From assembly GCA_951406725.2 (NCBI GenBank), contig OX597819.1, positions 51,522,001-51,586,000 of the forward strand: a stretch of 64,000 nucleotides of DNA. Reading direction: 5' to 3'. Positions 11,356 to 63,537 of this stretch are shown here, one piece after another (positions within the stretch are counted from its first letter, which is position 1; each line of letters begins with the position of its first letter). The notes under the pieces were generated by a model that was given only the letters and a program-made list of their open reading frames with translations, was not told the DNA's origin and made no database searches. Both the position numbers and the translations under genes were made by a program. This DNA is from Octopus vulgaris (taxonomy: Eukaryota).

Positions 11356-11934
11356 GTGTGTGGTTTCCGCTTCATCGGGGAATTACCTCCCTTTGCAGGT
11401 TAAGGGCACCGTGACGGTGTCGAGCCTTTCTGGTGACATCGATGTTCGCCTGGGGCTAAATGCAACAGTAACACCCCCACCACCCTGCCCTGTCCCTAGC
11501 CATATTCAGATGGCTTTAGTCCCTTATGTTATCGAGCAGTTACTGTCTATATCCCTTTTAGAGAATTATTATTGCTTTCGAACAGATTTTCGAAATCAGC
11601 AAATGTATTTTGCTTGAAAATCTATATAAGAAAATCCTGCAGAGTGAGAATTCGTCGAGGAAGCGGAGGCCTACCACACGCCGATGATAGGCAATACACC
11701 TTGAAACCATGGTCCGTGTGTGGTTTCCGCTTCATCGGGGAATTACCTCCCTTTGCAGGTTAAGGGCACCGTGACGGTGTCGAGCCTTTCTGGTGACGTC
11801 GATGTTCGCCTGGGGCTAAATGCAACAGTAACACCCCCACCACCCTGCCCTGTCCCTAGCCATATTCAGATGGCTTTAGTCCCTTATGTTATCGAGCAGT
11901 TACTGTCTATATCCCTTTTAGAGAATTATTATTG

Positions 11935-11936
<2 letters not shown>
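11356..11936 (+). mobile_element. retrozyme-like non-coding element: 1.6 copies of a 360-bp monomer with an HHR at the monomer junction
   Basis: 221-bp direct repeats 11356-11576 and 11716-11936 with 1 mismatch; HHR core at 11675-11720; ends in (TA)n. Confidence 0.8.
11649..11744 (+). ncRNA. type I hammerhead ribozyme (U4C core, palindromic helix III, long helix I)
   Basis: CACACG-CCGATGA-tAGG(caataca)CCTt-GAAA-CCATGG-TC^CGTGTG. Helix I is extended by GAAGCGGAGGCC/GGTTTCCGCTTC and AATTC/GAATT. Confidence 0.8.
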
Positions 11937-12210: not shown

Positions 12211-12600
12211 ATTTATATTTTTGTGTTGAATCTTATTTTATTTTAGTTATTATTGTTATTTTTGTAGTTCTTGTTGATGACATTTGTACTTATTATCATT
12301 CGTTAGCAGGGTATTTAATAGTCGTCAAATGTTACTTTGTAAGTTGATACAACACTATCTGCATGCTTCGCTGCCTGTTGGTCTCCAAAGGGACGGTCCT
12401 TCTTAGAAATTCTATACCCCAAGAGGCCTTCATCTTAGATGTTTTACTGGGTTGTCTCGAATTCAGGAGTGGAGCAAGTGCTTCTTTTATGTTTTTGTTT
12501 TGTTAACTCCTCCCCTTTATTTTTTTTTTTTATTCTACTTTGTATATTTATTCCTTTAATTAATTGTTTATTTACATTCTTTCCATCTGTGTTAATAAAG

Positions 12601-12975
12601 TCGCAGGTGTGGCTGTGTGGCAGGATTTTTGCATCCCAGTCACATGGTTCCGGGTACAATCGCACTGCGCGGCACCATGGGAAAGTTTCTTATACTATGG
12701 CCTCGACCAAGGTCTTCTGAGTGGATTTGGTAGACGGGAACTGAAAGAAGCCCGTCGTACATATGTATGGGTGTGTGTGTTTGTCCTCCACCACTACCTG
12801 ACAACTGGTGTTTATATGTTTATGTCCCTGCAACTTAGTGATTCGGCAAAAGTAAGCCTTATAGAATAAGTACCAAGCTTTAAAAAAAATGAGTACTGAG
12901 TCAATTCGTGCAACTAAGCTTCTTCAAGTCGATGCCCCAGCATGGCACCAGTCCAATGTCTGAAACAAGTATAAG
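12601..12975 (+). mobile_element. SINE family B (CORE-like, CR1-type tail)
   Basis: GCAGGTGTGGCTGTGTGG head, GTGGATTTGGTAGACGG, tail CCCCAGCATGGC...CTGAAACAAG. Confidence 0.85.
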
Positions 12976-13371
12976 ATAACAGATAGGACTTTATCCAAAA
13001 TGGAAGCCTGTTATGTAGTAATTCGATCAGCTATAAACCGCAGCCAACTTACTCGGATTAAAATATACTGTCTTAAATAACAAAAAGGACACGTCGAGAA
13101 AAATAACCCTAAGACTGCACTGGTTGTAATATACTTGAACATCCTTACGAAAGATCAGGGCTTGCTTGTTTATAATTTCACCAAGATCAGTATTTTGATT
13201 CTCGTTCAAAACCAAATTTAAGAAAATGTGTTCCATATTGGAGGGAAAGCTAACCCTTGGCGGTTTGGCCTCTCATAAGTGGTTAAACTCAGAGTAGTCA
13301 CTGGGCCTGATAGAAATAGCTGCCAAATTTCCTTCGAGTTGCACTGTACCGTATTAAAAGAAGAAATGTAA

Positions 13372-13509
13372 ACAGCTTGCTTACGAACCACATGGTTCCG
13401 GGTTCAGTCCCATTGCGTGACACCTTACGCAAGTGCCTTCTATAACCTCGGGCCGACCAAAGCCTTGTGAGTGGATTTGGGAGACGGAAACTGAAAGAAG
13501 CCCGTCGTA

Positions 13510-13594
<85 letters not shown>

Positions 13595-13820
13595 GTGTGT
13601 GTGTATATATATAAGTTTGTGTGTCTGTGTTTGTCCCCCCATCCCCACATCGCTTGACAACCGATTCTGATGTGTTTACGTCCCCGTTACTTACCGGTTC
13701 CGCCAAAGAGACCGATAGAATAAGTACTAAGCTTACAAAGAATAAGTTCTAGGGTCGATTTGCTCGACTAAATGCGGTGCTCCAGCATGGCCACAGTCAA
13801 ATGACTGAAACAAATAAAAG
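13372..13820 (+). mobile_element. SINE family B with an internal (TA)n(TG)n microsatellite
   Basis: B-box-like GGGTTCAGTCCC, GAAAGAAGCCCGTCG then the microsatellite, tail GCGGTGCTCCAGCATGGCCACAGTCAAATGACTGAAAC. Confidence 0.9.
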
Positions 13821-13952
13821 AGATATAAGACAATATAATCCATAATACACAAGTCGAGAGGGTCGCGACTTGAGTATCTTTAATCATAGGTCAAATTTGA
13901 TCAGTGTTGATCGAGGGATGTACAATAACGATGCCTTTTTCTTCCTTTGAAG

Positions 13953-18402: not shown

Positions 18403-18408
<6 letters not shown>

Positions 18409-19669
18409 GTAAAAAGTGAAAAAACTATAGAAGGCTTGTTTTAAAAGGTTAAAAAATATATTTGAGTCATTATGTCAGAAGAATGTTATAAATTTTTTTC
18501 ATACAGTGACATAGTTTTTGAAGAAATTACCGGTTTCGTGTTAACTTTTCAAATTTCTCAAAACATCGTGTTATGACTTCGTTATGAAGTGTAAAGAGGA
18601 GTTCCAGGTAAGGGGGGGTAATAAGTGATTTCTTCCGGTGTAAGGGAGATAATCGCTTTATATTTCTTGCCTGTTTGACTTAATGGGGTGAGTTTCTCTG
18701 TATAAGAATATTAGAGCGGTTAAGTTTGGGCTTATGTTTTTCAATGAAGGATGTTTCCTTGTTTAGTCTAATTTGTGTTGGTGTTCCAATAGCACATTGA
18801 TAAAATGGAAAGATTAAAAATTGTGGTAGTAGTTGCTTTGCGCATTTCTCAATATGCTCACTAAAGGGTATCATTCTGTATTCTGGGAATGCAATCTGTT
18901 ATCGATGCAGTGTGCATCTACGTCTGAGTGATAGTCCCGTGGATCCCACGTAGTTTTGGTGGCAGCCCGAGCATCTTATGACATAAATTATGTTTTCAGA
19001 AGCACAAGTAAAATTAGATTTGATCTTGAATTTTTGTCCCTCTTTGAAGAGGAATTCTCATCCTTCTAGAAGGTTTGGGCATGTTGCGCAGTTTGGTCTA
19101 CCACATTTTTTACTTTTGCATCCGTAATTTCAGAAAGCAATTTTGCCTTTGTGAGAATCTTTTTAAGTGATTTAGGTTGTTTGTATCTTTTAATGATTTT
19201 ATGTATGTTTAGAATTTCCTTTAATTTGGGGTCCTTATGAAGTATTGGTAAATTCTGGGTGATGATGGTGAAGGCGTCTTTGTTTCTGGGGTTGTATGTG
19301 GATATGTAAGGCAGTATTTTCGGGAAAGGTGTGTTGTTGTGTTGAACTTTTCTCAAAGTTTCTATGTCGATTTCTGTTGCACGTCTGATCCCATCCTCTA
19401 TGAGTTGAGCTGGGTAGTGTCTGTTAATTAGGGTGTTTTTGAGTTCTTGTAGTCTAAAGTTCCTGGTATTTTGTTCTGACACTATTGTGCATATCCTTCT
19501 TGCAAGGTTGAAAGGGATGTTTGTTTTAGTGTGTCTTGGGTGGCATGAATCAAAAAGAAGGTATTGTTTGGCGTCTGTGGCTTTGTAAAAAATGTCTGTC
19601 TCTATTTTAAGGTTAAGGTTTCTATTTTCTATATATTCAACCACGTGCTTTCACACTCCAACTTTCTCA
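18403..19669 (-). mobile_element. Neptune-type PLE copy 1: 5'-truncated, with an inverted terminal fragment
   Basis: ORFs 19066..19644 and 18680..18874 are nearly identical to the thumb and GIY-YIG of copy 3. 19622-19669 is the element's 3' terminal sequence in the opposite orientation. Confidence 0.92.
18516..18563 (-). ncRNA. minimal type I HHR, U3-A8 variant, in the PLE 3' UTR
   Basis: TTTTGAGAAAT-TTGAAAA-GT(taac)AC-GAAA-CCGG-TA^ATTTCTTCAAAA; helix III is the palindrome ACCGGT. Confidence 0.72.
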
Positions 19670-19742: not shown

Positions 19743-19744
<2 letters not shown>

Positions 19745-20070
19745 TTGCTATTATGTTAAACTATATCGTATGTCCAACTTTGGTCAAATGCATTTTAAAT
19801 ATTTATGTTTGCAATAGCTAGAGAGGGTGTGAATCAATACCCTAACGTGTCCAGTTCGATTATTTTACACTTCTGACATTTTTTTGTTTCTTTGATCGAT
19901 TCTCAAGGGATGCAAGGCAAATGTGACCTTTGGGTCATTTAAACTCACAGCAAATAGAATCGAACCAATGACCATGAAGCATTCAATCCAAACAAAGCTC
20001 TTGCGATTCTGCCAATCTGACATGTTTTACACACACACATGTGGTTGGGAAGCAGGCTTCTTACCACTCA

Positions 20071-20136
<66 letters not shown>

Positions 20137-20460
20137 TGAGTGGTAAGAAGCCTGCTTCCCAACCACATGTGTGTGTGTAAAACATGTCAGATTGGCAGAA
20201 TCGCAAGAGCTTTGTTTGGATTGAATGCTTCATGGTCATTGGTTCGATTCTATTTGCTGTGAGTTTAAATGACCCAAAGGTCACATTTGCCTTGCATCCC
20301 TTGAGAATCGATCAAAGAAACAAAAAAATGTCAGAAGTGTAAAATAATCGAACTGGACACGTTAGGGTATTGATTCACACCCTCTCTAGCTATTGCAAAC
20401 ATAAATATTTAAAATGCATTTGACCAAAGTTGGACATACGATAGTTTAACATAATAGCAA

Positions 20461-20462
<2 letters not shown>
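19743..20462. repeat. near-perfect 720-bp palindrome with an (AT)n centre
   Basis: Arms 19743-20073 and 20134-20462 are reverse complements apart from one 2-bp indel; identical ORFs on both strands in the track. Confidence 0.95.
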
Positions 20463-28560: not shown

Positions 28561-28614
28561 TACACTATATCTGTAATTAGAGGCAGTCTTAAGTAATTAT
28601 CTTTTACTTTTTAT

Positions 28615-28897
28615 CGTTTACTTGTTTCAGTCATTGGACTGCGGCCATGCTAGAGCACCACTTTCAAGGATTTTAGTCAAACACATCAACCCCAATACAT
28701 AATATCAAATTTGGTATTTATTCTATCGGTCTTTTTTGCCGAACCCCTAAATTACAGGGACGCAAACAAATTAACACCGGTTCTCAAACGGTGGCGGACG
28801 GGTCAAACAGAGGTAACCACCCCCACAAAAAAACAAATGCACACACACACACATACATACATACATACGTACATACATACATACATACATATATACA

Positions 28898-31168: not shown

Positions 31169-31375
31169 CTTTTATTTGTTTCAGTCATTTAACTGCGGCC
31201 ATGCTGGAGCACCACCTTTAGTCGAGCAAATCGACCCCAGGACTTATTCTTTGGACGCCTAGTACTTATTCTATCGGTCTCTTTTGCCGAACCGCTAAGC
31301 TACGGAAACGTAAGAACACCAGCATCGGTTGTCAAGCGTAGTTGGGGGAGGGGGCAAACACAGACACACAAACAT

Positions 31376-31457
<82 letters not shown>

Positions 31458-31619
31458 GACGGGCTTCTTTGAGATTCCGTCTTCCAAATCCACTGACAAG
31501 GCTTTGGTCGGCCACGGCTATAGTAGAAGACACTTGCCCAAGGTGCAACGCAGTGGGAATGAACCAGGAACCATGTAGTTGGTAAGCAAGCTACTTACCA
31601 CACATCCACTCCTGCGCCT
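31169..31619 (-). mobile_element. full-length SINE family B
   Basis: Reverse complement of AGGCGCAGGAGTGG...GCACCTTGGGCAAGTGTCTTCT (CORE-like)...(TA)n...CAGCATGGCCGCAGTTAAATGACTGAAAC. Confidence 0.92.
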
Positions 31620-32267
31620 TTGATTACTATACACCTTAAAACATTGCAGTATCGGAGAATGCAAGTTTCGTCTTTCTGTGCTCACCCTTAAGACAGCAGG
31701 GCAGTGCAGATAGGTTGCTCTCACCACATTTTAAAAAAACATATGTCTTTCCCAGATGTACGTTTTGACTAAAAACTAGAGGACCAAACCTCAGAAGAAG
31801 TCGTCCTGTGTGCTCGTTCATCATACCGATTATTTTTATTTTCCCGAGTACTCGACAGTATTGAAAGTGGAGAGTTGACCCTCTTTTTGATATTTGTTCT
31901 GTTGGGTTTCTACTTACCCCCATATTTTGTCTTGTGATGGGATACCGTGTTTATCATCAACTATCCGAATATGTCACAAGTCGTACTATTAGCAGTAGCA
32001 CACAAAGCAACCTGGCAATCTATCTATCTATCTGTGAATTGTGTGTGTGTGTATTAGATTGGGTTGCGCATGTTCAGGTCCACAGCAGGACCAGAAATTT
32101 AAATTTTTCTTTATATGTATTAATATTTTATTAAATTTCTAAATATTTTTTGTTGTTGTTGTTGTTTATGACTGCCATTATTAATAATTTTGATACCAAT
32201 TTTAAAGTTTTTCGCATTAGTAAATTCATCTTTAATACCTTCTTTTTAATAGTTACACCTGCACATA

Positions 32268-34887: not shown

Positions 34888-35075
34888 CCAGCATCGCTTG
34901 ACAACCGATGCTGGTCGTGTTTACGTCCCCGTAACTTAGCGGTTCGGCAAAAGGGACCCGATAGAATAGATACCAGGCTTACAAAGACTAAGTCCCGGGG
35001 TCGATTTGCTCGACTAAAGGCGATACCCCAGCATGGCCGCAGTCAAATGACTGAAACAAGTTAAAGAATAAAAGA
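34888..35075 (+). mobile_element. SINE family B, 3' half
   Basis: CATCGCTTGACAACCGATGCTGG...AACTTAGCGGTTCGGCAAAAG...CAGCATGGCCGCAGTCAAATGACTGAAAC. Confidence 0.85.
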
Positions 35076-35290: not shown

Positions 35291-35341
35291 TTTGTCAGTG
35301 AACAGGTCGCGGTCTCAAAGCGACGAAAATATTTTGACAAA
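35291..35341 (+). ncRNA. type I HHR, G3-C8 swapped core, in a ~200-bp solo pLTR-like repeat (about 35277-35480)
   Basis: TTTGTCA-GTGAACA-g-GTCGC(ggtctcaaa)GCGAC-GAAA-ATAT-TT^TGACAAA; 7-bp helix I, 5-bp helix II, palindromic AATATT helix III. Confidence 0.75.
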
Positions 35342-35479
35342 TTAAATTGAAATGTTGAAGTGAATCTAACGGATTTTGTTTTTCTTAAATGGCTTATAAA
35401 CACCTTCCACGCTGCAATTGTTTTCGTTCCAGCATACGAACTCAGATCAGGTCAATTGCTATGCAAGTACATCTCCGTA

Positions 35480-39885: not shown

Positions 39886-40283
39886 GGCGCAGGTGTGGCT
39901 CTGTAGTAGCAAATTTGTTTCCTAATTGCATGGTCCCGGTTTCAGTCCCACCAGGTTGTACCTTGAGCAAGTGTGTTCTGTTATAGTTACAGATCAGCCA
40001 AAACCATACGAATTGATTTAGTAGACGCAAACTGTGTGGAAATCCGTTGCAAATATGTATGTGTCTGTCTGTCTGTCTGTGTGTTTGCATTTGGGCTTTC
40101 CTCCCATCACTTCTTGACAACCGGTGTTAGTTTATTTGTGTCTCCGTCACTTTACGGTTCGACAAAAAGAGACCGATAGTATAAGTACCAGGCTTTAAAA
40201 ATAAGCACTAGAATGGATCTGTTCAACTAAACCGTACAAGGTGTTGCCCCAGCATGGCCGCAGTTCAGTAACTGAAACATGAA
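39886..40283 (+). mobile_element. SINE family B, diverged
   Basis: GGCGCAGGTGTGGCTCTG head, CCTTGAGCAAGTG, GGTTCGACAAAAAGAGACCGATAG, tail CCCCAGCATGGCCGCAGTTCAGTAACTGAAAC. Confidence 0.82.
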
Positions 40284-42800
40284 AAAGATAATAGATAAAC
40301 TCATAAAACTTATAAAACACTCGACAGTTATGCAGTGCTGCCGCTGTTTTATCTCTTTGCAGACAAGTAAATATCAACGTTATAGAGAGAGAAAATTTCA
40401 TTGATAGAATCCGAAATCGTGAATTTTCACTTAGTAATTTAAACATCCTACTGATTCGATCAGAAGGGACTCAACAAAATTATATTCTCTTATAATTGTG
40501 ACATGTTTTATGTCGATGGCAAACACGCTTCAGTTGATATCAAGTCTTCTCATAGTCCCTTACTCCTTTCTCAGTAAATTAATCTCAGGATGGCTACAAT
40601 GGATTCACTAACAAATCAAAGTGGAATGGAGTGGCTGTAATAGAGAAGTTAAAAGCTCGGCGATTTGATTTATATTGCAAGGCTGAGCAGTGAAGATGAA
40701 ACATGTATTTGCTAGAGTTAATCAAAGGGTTAGTTAATATTGCTGCTGCAGCGATATATTGGTTTGCTCTTAGTCTTCTCATCTTTATCTTGGCATTTGA
40801 ATTCGACAGAAAAAAAGTTCCAGACTGACAGCACATACACACACACGCACACACGCACACACGCACACACACTCATATATATATATAAGCTTCTTTTTAA
40901 TGATAACGAACTGTTTCACTCCTTGGTAGTGATATCATCGTGAAAAACAGTTTGAAACTTGTAAGATTAGCTTGAATCAAAGGACTTATATATTTCACAT
41001 ATCAAAGATAGTCAAAATTGAAATATCTGTTAATAGTCAATCCACAAATGTCAAAGGGTACGGGAAATTGCATTGCTTAATAGACTGAATTATAGTTACA
41101 AGTGATTTACCATTATGCATTCGGTGCAAATAATCGGTGCGCAAAAGGTGAATTGAAATTGAAATTTCTTTCTTTCAGATATAAAGACATAATTGATGAG
41201 CTCAGAGCGATGTTATGTTGCATATCCGTCCAACGCATGCTAAGCATAATGAAACGGACATAAATGCGATGATATATGTTGCAATGATTTCAGGAAGAGT
41301 GATAACACTACCAGTAACACAATTACATTAGCAATTATAATCATTAGCAACCATCGCCATAAGAACGTTAGCAACACTTCGGTCACAGCAACACCAGCAG
41401 CAAGGACACTGACAGAGAACACTAATCAAAAATTACAAACTTTCAGGAAAAAAAATAACAAGAAGAAAGCTACTTCCCAAAAGAAAACTCTGTGAAAACA
41501 CTTTCTACCGGCTCCTAACTGATCGTGTTCAACTCTCAAACATGTCTGCGAAACTAAATTTTCATTACTTTTTTCCACCATAACGTGAACATATATAGTG
41601 ATGTTTATTCAACACTGATGTAGTCAGAATGAAACCGAAACACACTCGGAATTGTTCGCTGTTATTGCTTAAAATATTATTATTACTCGTTGATTAACGT
41701 TGTTTTTATCTCACCTTGTATCTTTTCTAGTTAACTTTCTAAAATACTCCTTGCGTTAAATATATTAATGCTAACGTAAGTTAACTGTTGTGAAGCATTT
41801 ATTTTGGTGTTCCTATTGTCCCTGTTGATCCCAACTACTTATAACCAGTAGTATATAGTGGTTGTAGCACCTCTCTTCGGCAGTTGGAGTTGACACCACC
41901 CAGCCTCGACAGAATTACTTCCTTTATGTTGGTTGTTACAATAAAACAATTTCAAATTGATATATTTAAGGCTTTTAATGAAAACACTGTTTCTGTATTA
42001 CAATACTTAAGTGAAAGCGTCGCCATAAGGAATACAAGTTATCGTTAAGAAAACTGACACAAAATAGAATTCAAACAGTCGTATGTAACGAGACAGTGCA
42101 AATAATAACTGGAAATATTCTCATATTGCTGACATCGTAATACTCTATAACATGTCTATGGACAGGTGTACAGAGCATCACCATGTCTGCCTGTCTCTTT
42201 CGCCTGATTCTCAGTTTTAAAACCCAGACACTTGTTTCCGTAAGCCCTACCGCGGTCGAAAGAGCATACATCTTGTTCCTCTTCAGACAATGTTCATTAC
42301 AACTCTTCTTTTCCGAGCATATTGAAAACTCTTCCGTTATTCATAAAACAGCGGAATATTATCTTGCTCCTCGATCTTTCCTTCGTAAATTCTTCAAGGA
42401 AGGACAAGTTGTCTCTCGAAATATATCTCAAACATACTTTTCTTTGAACTTGCTCATATCAAGCAGCTCCTTATGACACACGACGCTTGTAAAAGTTGGA
42501 TAGTTATTGATGCAACTGGTTGTTATATTGTTAGCCTCTTTATGTGTGGTTTCTATTGTGTAACTGTAAGGTCACTGCTTGGTTCTTTTTTCTTTTATTT
42601 TTTATTCTTTTATTTGCTAATGTCATTGGACTGTGGTTATGCTGAAGCACTTTTCTGAATGGTTTAATCGAATTAATTCAGACCAATACCTATTTTCTGT
42701 CTCCAACGTTTTGCTGGAATGCTAAATTACGAGGGAGTAAATAAGCCAACGCCAGTTGTCAAGCGGTATGGGAACAAACCACAAACACACTTACACATAT

Positions 42801-43750: not shown

Positions 43751-43859
43751 AACCAGATTTATTCGCATCTTTCCTGACAGATGTTTATTATAACTGCTAA
43801 CATATTGGGAACATTCTTAACTACAATAATCAGGACCGAGCAGTGATACAAGAAGAACA

Positions 43860-45880
43860 CCTACACCCCGCAAAAAATAAAGAAAACTCTATTCTCACTA
43901 ATTAAAACCCATGGAAAGGAACTGACAACCTTGACTTTCTAACAAACTTTAAATGCAAACCTAGCCTCTTCTCATGGTCTGCCAAAAATACACAAAAGCC
44001 AAATTATAAATGAAACCATTAAAAAATTACCAAAGACATACATACATACATACACCTAACCCGGGGGACCTAAAACTACGACCCATTGTACCTGGCCCAG
44101 CCTGTGAAACACACAGACTAAATCTACTTATGGACATCCTCCTGAAACCCTTCCTTAAACACATCGATAGCCATATCAGAGATGACTTGGATATGTTAAA
44201 TCACCTTCCAAAAAAGTCAAGTATACCTCATAATTATGGACTAGAGGCAATTCAGTTCTGGCTGGATCAATTTCCGGAAGAAATGCCAAAAAGGATCAGC
44301 AAAGAATTCATTACTAAATCCGTTGAATTCATCCTACATAATAACCACTTCTTGTTTGACAATACGTTTTACCGTCAAAAGTCCGGAATTGCTATGGGTA
44401 CAAGGGCAGCACCAGTAATTGCGAACCTAACAATGGGCTACCTGGAGGTAATAATATACCAGGAATCTTCATCGACCCTTGAAAACCCCCTTTCCCAATA
44501 CATAAAAGAGAATTGGAAAAGATTCCTAGACGACTGTTTTATACACTGGAATGAAAACACAGGTAAAACGTCTTCCTAAAATTCAAAAACCTATTGAACA
44601 GCGTCAACCCAAACATACAGTTCACAATGGAGTACAACCAAAAGGAGCTTCTATTCTTAGATATACTAATTTAAAAAATTAACCTAAAAATAGAAACAGA
44701 CATATTTTACAAAACCAGACGCCAAACGATACCTGCTTTTTGATTCATGCCACCCAAGACACACTAAAGCAAACATCCCTGTCAACCTTGCAAGAAGGAT
44801 ATGCACAATAGTGTCAGAACAAAATACCAGAAACTTTAGACTACAAGAACTCAAAAACACCCTAATTGACAGACACTACCCAGTTCAACTCATAGAGGAT
44901 GGAATCAGACGTGCAACAGAAATCGACATAGAAACTTTAAGAAAAGTTCAACACAGCAACACACCTTCCCCGAAAATACTGCCTTACATATCCACATACA
45001 ACCCCAGAAACAAAGAAGCCTTCACCATCATCACCCAGAATTTACCAATGCTTCAAAAGGACCCAAAATTAAAGGAAATTCTAAACACACTTAAATCATT
45101 AAAAGCTACAAACAACCTAAATCACTAAAAAAGGCAACGTTATTTTCTGAAATAACGGATGCAAAAGTTTAAAATGTGGTAGACCAAACTGCGCAATATG
45201 CCCAAACCTTCTAGAAGGATGAGAATTCCTCTTCAAAGAGGGACAAAAATTCAAGATCAGATCTAATTTTACTTGTACTTCAGAAAACCTAATTTATGTC
45301 ATAAGATGCTCGGAATTGTTCGCTGCTACATAGGGTCCACGGGATTATCGCTCAGACGTAGATGCACTCTGCATCGACAACAGATTGCATTCTCAGAATA
45401 CAGAATGATACCCTTTAGTGAACATATTGAGAAATGTGCAAAGCAACTACTACCACAATTTTTAATCTTTCCATTCTATCAATGTGCTATTGGAACACCA
45501 ACACAAATTAGATTAAATCAGGAAACATTCTTCATTGAAAAAATATAAACCAAAACTTAACCATTCTAACATTTTTATACAAAGAAACTCATCTCATTGA
45601 AAAAAAAAAGAAAAAGTATAAAGCGATTATCTCCCTTATACTGGAAGAAATTCCTGATTACCTTCCCCTGCCTGGAAATCTTGACTTCATAGCGAAGACA
45701 TGGCCCAATGTAGGTAAAGAAATTTGCGAAATTTGAAAAGAATACACGAAACCGGTTATTTCTCCAAAAACTATGTTGCTATAATCAAAATTTGATAACA
45801 TTTTTCTAACATAACGACTTAAATATATTCTTTAACCTTATAACACAAGCCTTTCGTAGTTTTTTCACTCTTTTTCATTT
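43860..45880 (+). mobile_element. Neptune-type PLE copy 2, frameshifted, with a diverged 3' UTR
   Basis: ORFs 44010..44579, 44811..45128 and 45273..45548 align to copy 3 (LRPIV, GIAMGTRAAP, WKRFLDDCF, YIGST); ends in (TA)n. Confidence 0.93.
45723..45768 (+). ncRNA. minimal type I HHR, U3-A8 variant
   Basis: TTTGCGAAAT-TTGAAAA-G(aataca)C-GAAA-CCGG-TT^ATTTCTCCAAA. Confidence 0.6.
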
Positions 45881-50894: not shown

Positions 50895-51571
50895 GGTTCG
50901 GCAAACGAGATCGATAAAATGACTCAGCGGTTCGCCAAAAGATATCGATAAAATGACTTTGCGGTTCGCAAAACGAGATCGATAAAATAACTTAGCGGTT
51001 CGCAACACGAGACCGATAAAATGACTTATTGGTTCGATAAACAACATCGATAAAATGACTTAGCGGTTCGCCAAACAAGATCGATAACATGACGTAGCGG
51101 TTCGAAGAAAAAGATCGATAAATTGGATTAGCGGTTCGCTAAAGGAGAGCGATAAAATGACTAGGCGGTTCGCAAAACGAGATCGATAAACTGACTTAGC
51201 GTTTCGACGAACATGATCGAACAAGCGGTTCGCCAAACGTGATCGATATAATGACATGGCGGTTCGGCAAACGAGATCGATAAAATGACTTAGCGGTTCG
51301 CAAACAGTGATCGATAAAATGACTTGGCGGTTCGCGAAACGCGATCGATTAAATGGCATAGCGGTTCACCAAACTAGATCCATAGAATGACTTAACGGTT
51401 CGCCAAACGATATCGATAAAATGACGTAGCGGTTCGCCAAAAATGATCGATAAAATTATCTAGCTTTTCGACAAACATGATCGACTAAGCGGTTCGCAAA
51501 ACTAGATCGATAAAATGACACAGCGGTTCACCAAACGAGCTCGATAAAATGACCTAGCGGTTCGCCAAACG
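50895..51571 (+). repeat. 34-bp minisatellite (about 20.5 units) derived from the SINE B body
   Basis: Consensus GCGGTTCGCCAAACGAGATCGATAAAATGACTTA versus SINE B ACTTAGCGGTTCGGCAAAAGAGACCGATAGAATAAG. Confidence 0.9.
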
Positions 51572-53767
51572 TGCAGTTGTAATAATGGATACATCATACT
51601 ATAGAAATCTTGTAATTTCCTTGCTTGATGACAATCAACATTATGAAAAAATCACCAACTACATCCCACAAAAAATAATGAAAACTCTATCTTCGCTAAT
51701 TAAAACCCATGAAAAGGAACTAACAACCAAAGAGATTGACTTTCTAACAAACTTTAAATGCAAGCCTAGCTTCTTCTATGGTCTGCCAAAAATTCATAAA
51801 AGCCAAATTATAAATGAAACCATTAAAAAATCACCAAAGACATACATACACACACCTAACCCGGGGGACCTAAAACTACGACCCATTGTAGCTGGCCCAA
51901 CCTGTGAAACACACAGATTAAGTCTATTTATGGACATCCTTCTCAAACCCTTCCTTAAACATATCGATAGCCATATCAGAGATGACTTGGATATGTTAAA
52001 CCACCTTCCAAAAAAAGTCAAGGAAGAAACAATCATGGTTTCATTTGATGTAGTTAATTTATATACCAGTATACCTCATAATTATGGACTAGAGGCAATA
52101 CAGTTCTGGCTGGACCAATTTCCGGCAGAAATACCAAAAAGAATCAGTAAAGAATTCATTACTAAATCGGTTGAATTCATCCTACATAATAACCACTTCA
52201 TGTTTGACAATACGTTTTACCGTAAAAAATCCGGAATTGCTATGGGTACAAGGGCAGCACCAGTAATTGCGAACCTAACAATGAGCTACCTGGAAATAAT
52301 TATTAACCAGGAATCTTTATCAACCTTTGGAAAGCCCCTCTCTCAATACATAAAAGAGAATTGGAAACGATTCCTGGACGATTGTTTTATACTCTGGAAT
52401 GAAAACACAGATAAACTCCTAAAATTCAAAAACCTATTGAACAGCATCAACCCAAACATACAGTTCACAATGGAATACAACCAAAAGGAGCTCCCATTCT
52501 TAGATATACTAATTAAAAAAATTAACCTTAAAATAGAAACAGACATTTTTTACAAAGCCACAGACGCCAAACAATACCTACTTTTTGATTCATGCCACCC
52601 AAGACACACTAAAACAAACATCCCTTTCAACCTTGCAAGAAGGATATGCACAATAGTGTCAGAACAAAATACCGGGAACTTTAGACTACAAGAACTCAAA
52701 AACACCCTAATTGACAGACACTACCCAGCTCAACTCATAGAGGATGGGATCAGACGTGCAACAGAAATCGACATAGAAACTCTGAGAAAAGTTCAACACA
52801 ACAACACACCTTCCCCGAAAATACTACCTTATATATCCACATACAACCCCATAAACAAAGAAGCCTTCACCATCATCACCCAAAATTTACCAATACTTCA
52901 TAAGGACCGCAAATTAAAGGAAATTCTAAACATACATAAAATCATTAAAAGCTACAAACAACCTAAATCACTTAAAAAGATTCTCACTAAAGCAAAATTG
53001 CTTTCTGAAATTACGGATGCAAAAGTAAAAAAATGAGGTAGATCAAACTGTGCAACATGCCCAAACCTTCTAGAAGGATCAGAATTCCTCTTCAAAGAGG
53101 GACAAAAATTCAAGATCAAATCTAATTTTACTTGTGCCTCTGAAAACATAATTTATGTCATAAGATGCTCGGGCTGCCACCAAAACTACGTGGGGTCCAC
53201 GGGACTATCACTCAGACGTAGATGCACACTGCATCGACAACAGATTGCATTCCCAGAATACAGAATGTTACCCTTTAGTGAGCATGTTGAGAAATGTGCA
53301 AAGCAACTACTACCACAATTTTTAATCTTTCCATTTTACCAATGTGCTATTGGAACACCAACACAAATTAGACTAAACAAGGAAACATTCTTCATTGAAA
53401 AATATAAGCCCAAACTTAACCATTCTAACATTCTTATACAGAGAAACTCACCCCATTAAAAAAAGGCAAGAAATATAAAGCGATTATCTCCCTTACACCG
53501 GAAGAAATCACTTATTACCTCCCCTTACCTGGAACTCCTCTTTACACTTCTTAACGAAATCATAACGATGTTTTGAGAAATTTGAAAAGTTAAACACGAA
53601 ATCGGTAATTTCTTCAAAAACTATGTCACTGTATGAAAAATATTTATTACATTCTTCTGACATAATGACTCAATTTTTAACCTTTCAAAACAAGCCTTCT
53701 GTAGTTTTTTCACTTTTTACTATCTTCTATATATTCAACCACGTGCTTTCACACACCAACTTTCTCA

Positions 53768-57319: not shown

Positions 57320-57382
57320 TTGCACTGATGAGTAGAGAGTGCAAACCACTGCACTGATTACGAAATCCCAGGTGATCTGCAG
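57320..57382 (+). ncRNA. type I HHR with a canonical core
   Basis: TTGCA-CTGATGA-GTAG..AGTGCA(aaccac)TGCACT..TTAC-GAAA-TC(ccaggt)GA-TC^TGCAG. Confidence 0.78.
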
Positions 57383-57735
57383 CTGAATTCTGTTTTTAAA
57401 TGGCTTGCTTCGAGAGTTGCATTCGGTACGACATGTTTATTTATTTTAGTAGTTTTTACTTTAAGAGTCCTTCCTAGCGTGTGGCATTTATGTGTAATAA
57501 TTCCCTCTATATGCCCTCTAAATAATATAAATAAATATATTTAAGTGAAAAAATTGGTGGATTCTTTCTCTTATGGGGATTTACCAACCACACAAACACA
57601 CAAACACACACATATATATATGTGTATGTATGTATCTATGTATGTCTGTATATATATATACATTTATATACATATAACTAAATATATATATATGTACATA
57701 CGTACATATAAAAACATACGCACACACACTAACGT

Positions 57736-62696: not shown

Positions 62697-63537
62697 CAGG
62701 GATGCCCAACCTTTTTTTTTTATCTATGAACCCCTTTGATTACAATTTTATTCTGGTGCACCCTCATAGGCATTCCATATTTAAAAACTAGCTTTATTGA
62801 ATCTTTTTTCAAAATTTTTACACATTAACTTGTGTAGGTTGAACTATGTAAAATGTTGGAGAAAAGAAACCAAGCTGTTTCTTGCAATTCATATTAATAC
62901 ATATATTTAGAGCAAAATATTTTTAGGCACCCTTAAAATACATTTTTAGTAGCTTTAAGATTTCAGTGATGTAATACTCTCTCTCTCTCTTTAACTAATT
63001 TCAGTCATCTGACTGCTGTCATGCTGGAGCACCACCTTTAATCGAACAAATCGACCCCAGGATTTATACTTTGTAAGCCTAGTACTTATTCTATCGGTCT
63101 CTTTTGCCGAACCGCTCAATTACGGGGACGTAAACACACCACCATCGGTTGTAAGGCGATGGTGGGAGAACAAACAGAGACACACAAACATATACACACA
63201 TACATATTTATACATATATACGACGGGCTTCCTTCAGTTTCCGTCTCCCAAATCCACTCACACGTCTTTGGTCGGCCTGAGGCTATAGTAGAAGGCACAT
63301 GCCCAAGGTGCCACGCAGTGGGAATGAACCCAGAACCATGTGGTTGGTAAGCAAGGTACTTATCACACAGCCACTCCTGCGCCTTTGAAAATGATATTGT
63401 AGGGTAAGTGTGAGAGGCTGGATTTGGCTGGTTTAAATAGAGGGTTGAGAGACTACAATTTACTATTTTGTTGTACGGACCCTCAAAATCTTATATGGGC
63501 CCTCAGGGGTCATATGGGTCCCGGTCGAGAACAACTG
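62697..63537 (-). mobile_element. second hAT MITE copy with a nested SINE B
   Basis: TIRs CAGGGATGCCCAACC / GGTCGAGAACAACTG; TSD CTCTAATA/CTCTAATG; internal homology to 7677-8214. Confidence 0.8.
62990..63384 (-). mobile_element. full-length SINE family B
   Basis: Closely matches 31169-31619. Confidence 0.9.

Follow-up and report, generated by a model that had tools for sequence, protein, structure and literature searches.

A minimal type I hammerhead motif with a U3-A8 pair in truncated Penelope-like elements of probable Neptune type

Three truncated copies of a Penelope-like element (PLE) lie in the window, the whole 64-kb stretch of DNA analysed here, and each carries in its 3' UTR a short motif with the layout of a minimal type I hammerhead in which the 3-8 pair reads U-A. 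A preliminary description had proposed such U3-A8 motifs at 18516–18563, 45723–45768 and 53571–53619, and all three were found there, each with the core UUGAAAA. Sequence comparison supports classifying them as PLE hammerheads of the minimal type I, their U3-A8 pair being compensatory; the copies bear a real hammerhead-like motif, whose cleavage is putative. With a probability of roughly 0.75, this motif would be the pLTR hammerhead of a Neptune-type PLE family, which would serve dimer cleavage of RNA that contains tandem copies.

The host element and its copies

The copies were delimited by masked self-BLAST; a generic repeat finder was swamped by microsatellites. Their layout comprises a reverse transcriptase (RT), a Cys linker, a GIY-YIG endonuclease (EN) at the C terminus, a 3' pLTR with the hammerhead, a tail and (TA)n flanks. 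Copy 1 (18406–19634, minus strand) reaches from the RT thumb to the 3' UTR and contains a frameshift and stops, copy 2 (43858–45873, plus strand) has several frameshifts and stops, and copy 3 occupies 51656–53718 on the plus strand, with an RT frame that extends back to about 51558–51570. All three are 5'-truncated, with coding frames broken by stops or frameshifts, and every copy is followed by (TA)n; self-BLAST identity amounts to 95% between copies 1 and 3 and to 85.5% between copies 2 and 3. In copy 3, the 5'-truncated RT frame (51558–53036, plus strand; RVT_1, E = 8e-8), with an in-frame stop inside the RT-EN linker, precedes the remaining Cys-rich linker and the GIY-YIG endonuclease (53037–53459, plus strand; E = 5e-4, below the Pfam cut-off), which includes an internal CxxC and two His. 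An RT followed by a C-terminal GIY-YIG domain with CCHH characterizes an EN+ PLE. Self-BLAST and UTR alignment then define the 3' UTR/pLTR (53460–53716, plus strand), in which the hammerhead is located ~120 nt past the endonuclease stop, at a site equivalent to that in the homologous locus L001 and other relatives, and self-BLAST also delimits the AC-rich tail of ~50 nt (53717–53766, plus strand) that leads into (TA)n. An inverted copy of this tail, 94% identical to 53717–53766, sits at the truncated 5' end of copy 1 (19619–19668, plus strand), again next to (TA)n; the concept of a PLE tail is found in passages of PMC11167929 and PMC8557442.

Two further structures adjoin the truncated ends. 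A 34-bp minisatellite of about 20 units (50895–51570, plus strand) is fused straight to the 5' end of copy 3, and the truncated end of copy 1 borders on a near-perfect 340-bp inverted repeat around a (TA)n run (19743–20462), which is either a foldback element or an assembly artefact.

The elements had initially been labelled Neptune. Likeness to the Neptune/Nematis EN+ PLEs extends to the RT, the CX2-5CxxC linker, the C-terminal GIY-YIG with CCHH, (TA)n targets, the tail and the inverted 5' piece, whereas the window differs in holding truncated copies only, without a full pLTR-ORF-pLTR unit: tail and inverted 5' piece are seen, but a tandem pLTR pair, as present in L001, is absent from the 64 kb. 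The linker reads C-x4-C-x2-C in copies 1 and 2 and in homologues, and the clade descriptions in PMC8557442 give CX2-5CxxC for both Neptune and Nematis, with Neptune being paraphyletic. The label thus agrees with the linker and target features, although Nematis shares the linker; judged by these features, the element is a probable Neptune-type PLE. The nearest named proteins in the RT tree are from Octopus bimaculoides, which makes an octopus the probable host. Identity with Naiad was ruled out, as the Naiad endonuclease is N-terminal according to the domain layout given in PMC8557442.

The motif and its predicted fold

Hammerhead positions are numbered here by the standard scheme. In copy 3, the minimal type I hammerhead lies at 53571–53619 on the plus strand: helix I is built from 53571–53581 and 53608–53619, the core runs from U3 (53582) to A8 (53587) and on to A9, a 2-bp helix II lies within 53589–53597, and GAA precedes AUCGGU at 53601–53606 (C15.2U), followed by A17 at 53607, so that cleavage is predicted at 53607/53608. 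The copy 1 motif (18516–18563, minus strand) has U3 at 18552, ACCGGU and A17 at 18528; that of copy 2 (45723–45768, plus strand), the most decayed one, has U3 at 45733, ACCGGU and U17 at 45757, corresponding to a GUU site. The core UUGAAAA (U3 U4 G5 A6 A7 A8 A9) is common to copies 1, 2 and 3, with G10.1 immediately after it. Helix II consists of GU/AC in copies 1 and 3 (2 bp) and of G/C alone in copy 2 (1 bp), GAAA follows it in all copies, and the helix III hexamer is ACCGGU in copies 1 and 2 and AUCGGU in copy 3, in agreement with the short helix II, GAAA and ACCGGT (ATCGGT in copy 3) reported previously. Contiguous helix I measures 7, 5 and 7 bp and N17 is A, U and A in copies 1, 2 and 3, respectively; the hammerhead core N3-U-G-A-N-N8-A ... 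G-A-A-A15.1 ... U16.1-H17 is present in each. This numbering is consistent with the legend of Fig. 1 in PMC4209133.

A palindrome spanning 15.1–16.1 replaces a stable helix III. The self-duplex of ACCGGU was calculated at -8.3 kcal/mol and that of the copy 3 palindrome AUCGGU, which self-pairs via G-U, at -3.1 kcal/mol. Monomer folding assigned a pair probability of at most 0.02 to helix I of copy 2, and when dimers of copies 1 and 3 were folded without constraints, duplexes formed by swapped helix I were favoured over pairing through the helix III palindrome. The hammerhead junction was absent from the minimum-free-energy folds of monomers and dimers alike, a failure that carries little weight for motifs so minimal.

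The exact pattern has 3 matches in the 64-kb window and any match in 0 of 100 dinucleotide shuffles. The relaxed search for a paired 3-8 position that had been suggested earlier was carried out with a generic descriptor for type I that accepts every Watson-Crick 3-8 pair and demands at least 5 bp of helix I and a palindromic helix III; it returned four sites in the window, namely the three PLE copies and 35298, versus a mean of 0.05 and a maximum of 1 in 100 block shuffles, and when shuffling was confined to the UTR, the descriptor was matched in 1 of 5000 cases. In viral contigs, the exact core pattern occurs 33 times, and these matches were taken as chance because a helix I of even 3 bp accompanies 0/33 of them; 97 pattern matches in viral contigs yielded no RT relative. 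A local Rfam scan of 53470–53720 produced 6 matches at E ≤ 10, a hammerhead not being among them, and among the 150 listed of 664 matches from the whole-window scan there were microsatellite-driven miRNA matches and no hammerhead, as would be expected for minimal hammerhead variants. A chance origin of the motif is unlikely.

The three copies by themselves are less informative on conservation. The UTR of copy 2 had been regarded as strongly diverged, which overstated the case: it is 74–75% identical to that of copy 3, compared with 90% in the endonuclease coding part, and at a UTR identity of ~75% little extra conservation of the motif can be seen from three copies alone. That the motif is better kept than its surroundings holds for the core, with 14 of 14 columns identical (p ~ 0.012 at the flank rate, calculated post hoc), but the excess is weak for the whole span, where 41 of 60 columns are identical in the three copies when an 11-nt gap is counted (68%) and 41 of 49 when it is not (84%), versus 72–73% in the flanks; moreover, an unrelated 22-nt run elsewhere in the UTR (53474–53495) is identical as well. 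With 95% identity between copies 1 and 3, the set of three is worth about two independent samples.

Relatives and variation of the 3-8 pair

Outside the window, 86 loci with related RTs were considered, comprising the best 80 of 363 from metagenome contigs and all 6 of 6 from genome contigs. The descriptor scan identified a hammerhead in 35 of the 86 (27 C3-G8, 6 U3-A8, 1 G3-C8 and 1 A3-U8), and looser inspection of 19 closer loci contributed 7 more by visual assignment, of which six are C3-G8 and one is U3-A8. Watson-Crick 3-8 pairing and the core letters are thus kept, in all four pair types, in 42/86 homologous loci, and N17 was never G among the motifs seen (A, U, C).

Two relatives, L001 and L009 (47–49% RT identity), share the layout of the window family (GU-4nt-AC, GAA, ACCGGU and a helix I of 8–10 bp) but have C3-G8 and a different yet paired helix I; L001 carries the motif twice (positions 58 and 3757), flanking a full ORF, and L009 once. 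With U-A in the window copies and C-G in L001/L009, the 3-8 position is Watson-Crick paired throughout, consistent with the earlier proposal that U3-A8 is compensatory. In an alignment of the five motifs (three copies, L001, L009), pairing holds in 58 of 60 cells, and both sides change in 6 of the 12 pairs, 3-8 included; for helix I this applies to 5 of 6 pairs relative to L001/L009, while the helix II closing pair G10.1-C11.1 is present in 5/5. The covariation score was reached by 0 of 500 shuffles, and control structures slid along the alignment pair to 37–56%. Because the structure was drawn from the very sequences tested and the five rows stand for about two lineages, covariation supports rather than proves the fold. 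At the level of sequence, these comparisons show the fold, the 3-8 swap versus C3-G8 relatives and the covariation in helices I and II.

An RT tree was computed for copy 3 together with 35 loci and five proteins without DNA. It left out the 44 motif-free loci, L008 and L009 with their short matches, and L014, L035, L040, L054 and L086 (duplicate, opposite strand or far upstream), and its reading assumes that each motif belongs to the adjacent RT. On this tree, 7 changes are required to explain the 7 U3-A8 rows, and well-supported branches make at least 6 of them unavoidable; the rows do not cluster more than labels assigned by shuffling do, and C3-G8 is the pair in the six nearest loci with DNA. 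Judged from this 36-element sample, the U3-A8 swap is recurrent in PLEs, with at least six origins. U3-A8 as a clade hallmark was rejected, the nearest relatives with DNA being C3-G8.

Some observations on these loci stand apart. Sister PLE lineages display A3-U8 (L065:1969), the fourth Watson-Crick option, and U3-A8 (L020:2216). In the 3' UTRs of L003, L004, L005, L081, L084 and L011, a U-U mismatch takes the place of G10.1-C11.1 as the closing pair of helix II; stems II that begin with U-U are mentioned in a passage of PMC3088659. Animal-type PLE proteins encoded by L081–L086 and several named protein matches occur on contigs deposited as bacterial genomes or as assemblies of symbionts, which probably reflects host contamination.

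Variation within the family was assessed on contigs of sequencing runs. Family contigs from 4 of 24 runs were placed on 53330–53730, namely X15, X16 and X17 (DNA-type; organisms A, C and D) and X1 (RNA presumed); contig depth was used neither as copy number nor as a conservation measure. Among the 24 runs listed, none that carries the family is recorded as RNA. Among the 40 variant rows listed of 80, the motif varies at 53575 (G>A, minor), 53590 (T>C), 53596 (A>G), 53602 (T>C) and 53607 (A>C), and the rows listed also include deletions of 1 nt and 3 nt affecting loop 2 and the outer part of helix I, whereas positions 3–9, 10.1, 11.1 and 12–15.1 are variant in 0 of these 40 rows. Positions 53590 and 53596 form the two sides of the helix II pair 10.2-11.2, so that the two changes, each of them common in all four runs, turn U-A into C-G. 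Their depth shares (U10.2>C/A11.2>G) are 85/96% in X15, 80/48% in X16 and 53/74% in X17, and equal contig counts at offsets 6 apart in X16 and X1 indicate that both changes apparently reside on the same contigs. Hence, the 2-bp helix II has apparently undergone a compensatory U-A/C-G change within the family. As 53602 is C in ~99% of contig depth in the three DNA-type runs, AUCGGU is private to copy 3. One loose-end consensus of X17 likewise reads TTGAAAAG. N17 is C in 31–65% of depth in X15, X16 and X17; the single GUA cleavage site named in the preliminary description is not fixed, because copy 2 has GUU and many family contigs have GUC. As to the further proposal that U3-A8 is fixed in the family, no variant of position 3 or 8 occurs in the 40 rows listed of 80, which makes fixation likely, not proven; C3/G8 copies could exist among the further variant rows.

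Within the window, three of the four Watson-Crick options at 3-8 are indeed represented, as noted previously: U-A in the PLE copies, G3-C8 at 35298, and C3-G8 at 57325 and 11681. The G3-C8 minimal hammerhead (35291–35345, plus strand; core GUGAACA at 35298) has an extra G, a 5-bp helix II, AAUAUU, U17 and a 7-bp helix I, and its core is also found beside an RT in L030. The hammerhead-like C3-G8 motif at 57321–57383 (plus strand, core 57325) combines a long interrupted helix II with a 3-bp helix III and an AUC site. A third case involves a 360-bp unit repeated in tandem about 1.6 times, with a (TA)n end (11356–11935, plus strand; 11356–11575 equals 11716–11935 at 99.5%), with one type I hammerhead between the copies (core CCGAUGA at 11681, C3-G8 with U4C, palindrome ACCAUGGU, C17 at 11714). 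The first base of the upstream copy corresponds to the second base past the predicted cut, placing the 5' end of the insertion within 1 nt of the cleavage site; judged from its sequence, this single-copy structure resembles a retrozyme or a non-autonomous PLE, with the end of its template presumably made by self-cleavage. A dispersed short repeat, probably a SINE, is present in many copies of 65–89% identity (12593–12985, 13368–13839, 28596–28812, 31175–31626, 34888–35062, 39886–40296, 62986–63388 and others).

Proposed function, competing explanations and known systems

We propose that U3-A8 keeps the Watson-Crick 3-8 pair that would position nucleotide 8, which would make the swap near-neutral. 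Helix III, presumably unable to close alone, would be supplied by the ACCGGU palindromes of two hammerheads pairing on a tandem-copy transcript, perhaps assisted by the element's own protein, and a slow cut after N17 would convert multi-copy precursor RNA into unit lengths. Selection would have acted on source elements and not on the window copies, which are probably inactive relics, as they are solo, 5'-truncated and coding-broken and have one hammerhead each.

The most serious competitor, which we nevertheless consider unlikely, is a motif that has the hammerhead fold but is retained chiefly as a non-catalytic structure, such as a pLTR site for dimerisation or for binding a protein, or is a mere hitchhiker, any cleavage being irrelevant to transposition. 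It would be in line with a helix II of just 1–2 bp and the lack of an obvious loop-loop partner. The experiments of Frangieh 2024 (PMC11167929), as reported in its relevant sections, also point in this direction: a PLE hammerhead cleaved only with the element's protein, its cleavage was dispensable for insertion in vitro, where hammerhead mutants were without effect, and public reads had no RNA ends at the site. Naiad PLEs, in turn, thrive without canonical hammerheads, and a passage of PMC8557442 suggests hammerheads as possible parasites of PLEs. Yet the conservation of the catalytic-core letters and of 3-8 pairing across four pair types in 42/86 homologous loci, together with an N17 that is never G among the motifs seen, forms a pattern that fits selection for catalysis.

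Quite improbable, in our estimate, is an origin of U3-A8 by decay, that is, by AT-biased mutation of C3 and G8 in a family already devoid of ribozyme function. No mutations are more common than C>T and G>A, the UTR is AT-rich and the coding frames of all three copies are broken, but both changes are common to all copies with the remaining core intact (14/14), helix II shows the compensatory U-A/C-G switch inside the family, and U3-A8 arose independently in at least 6 PLE lineages, with G3-C8 and A3-U8 occurring too. A mere chance match of a short A/U-rich pattern, repeated through copy homology only, could invoke the missing Rfam match (local scan and 150 listed of 664 whole-window matches) and the bare core pattern at 33 viral-contig places, but is contradicted by the 0/33 viral matches with a 3-bp helix I and the 1/5000 UTR shuffles, and is already refuted by the covarying C3-G8 homologues at the equivalent place behind related ORFs.

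If the pLTR hammerhead reading is taken further, the family might be the U3-A8 form of a mollusc-associated Neptune-type PLE subgroup with an unreported, extremely compact active hammerhead, the 3-8 pair flipping freely in PLE evolution; we advance this extension tentatively, with rather more doubt than confidence. The compact layout combines a long helix I with a helix II of 2 bp closed by a loop of 4–5 nt, lacks an extra nucleotide and has the ACCGGU palindrome. Short-stem-III, dimeric PLE hammerhead variants were reportedly described by Lunse et al. in 2017, and the 2-bp helix II layout may already be within that set. If true, hammerhead counts in such genomes would be too low, since the layout falls outside the published descriptor for minimal hammerheads. 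The present case shows that real families are missed by descriptor searches that demand CUGANGA and no fewer than 3 bp in helix II. L001/L009 and the window family offer a natural C3-G8/U3-A8 pair on one compact scaffold and thereby a clean test of the cost of the swap. Known hammerhead chemistry and PLE biology are left unchanged.

The U3-A8 core as such is already published for PLEs, and the window family is not the first to show it. The novelty implied for U3-A8 in the preliminary description is therefore not upheld: the pertinent text of Cervera and De la Pena 2014 (PMC4209133) describes U3-A8 minimal hammerheads in Schistosoma Cercyon PLEs with ~1,300 matches, and the swap recurs in the homologues analysed here. 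The present data extend U3-A8 PLE hammerheads to a probable cephalopod family, and the 2-bp helix II may be the sole feature not reported before; a literature search, which covered few subscription papers, found no paper on octopus hammerhead ribozymes. Passages of the further hammerhead/PLE literature (PMC6765202, PMC7229834, PMC6155905, bioRxiv 10.64898/2026.07.22.740005) provide additional background. The descriptor printed in PMC4209133 (cuganga, stem II of 3–7 bp, gaaannuh, an extra nucleotide after A9 being usual) does not fit the window motif in three respects, namely the letters of the core and the lengths of stem II and of the palindrome; a second descriptor, for U3-A8, was also used in that study, and its dimers of minimal hammerheads are described there as weakly cleaving. 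In its Fig. S3, helix II has 3 bp or more in all 56 rows, and cephalopods are not represented among them.

Closest in the core are the Schistosoma mansoni Cercyon PLEs (Sm3/Sm4), likewise type I, located in the pLTR and with a U3-A8 core, S. mansoni(4) reading UUGAAAA plus one A and S. mansoni(3) UUGAUAA plus one A in Fig. S3 of PMC4209133. These hammerheads differ in having an extra nucleotide after A9, a helix II of 4–6 bp and the 4-nt palindrome ACGU, whereas the window family has no extra nucleotide, a 2-bp helix II, a 6-nt palindrome and a helix I of up to about 11 bp with a bulge. The PLE minimal hammerheads of Marsupenaeus, Drosophila, Aedes and Saccoglossus in the same figure resemble it in the palindromic hexamer, or longer palindrome, for helix III and in the dimer model, but their helix II has at least 3 bp instead of 2 bp. 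For helix II, the nearest precedents are those of Perreault et al. 2011 (PMC3088659), whose relevant sections report natural U3-A8 covariation, in vitro activity of naturally occurring U3-A8 ribozymes, frequent 2-bp stems II and known 1-bp ones; the tested example with a 1-bp stem II differs in relying on a pseudoknot, and these sections contain no PLE example.
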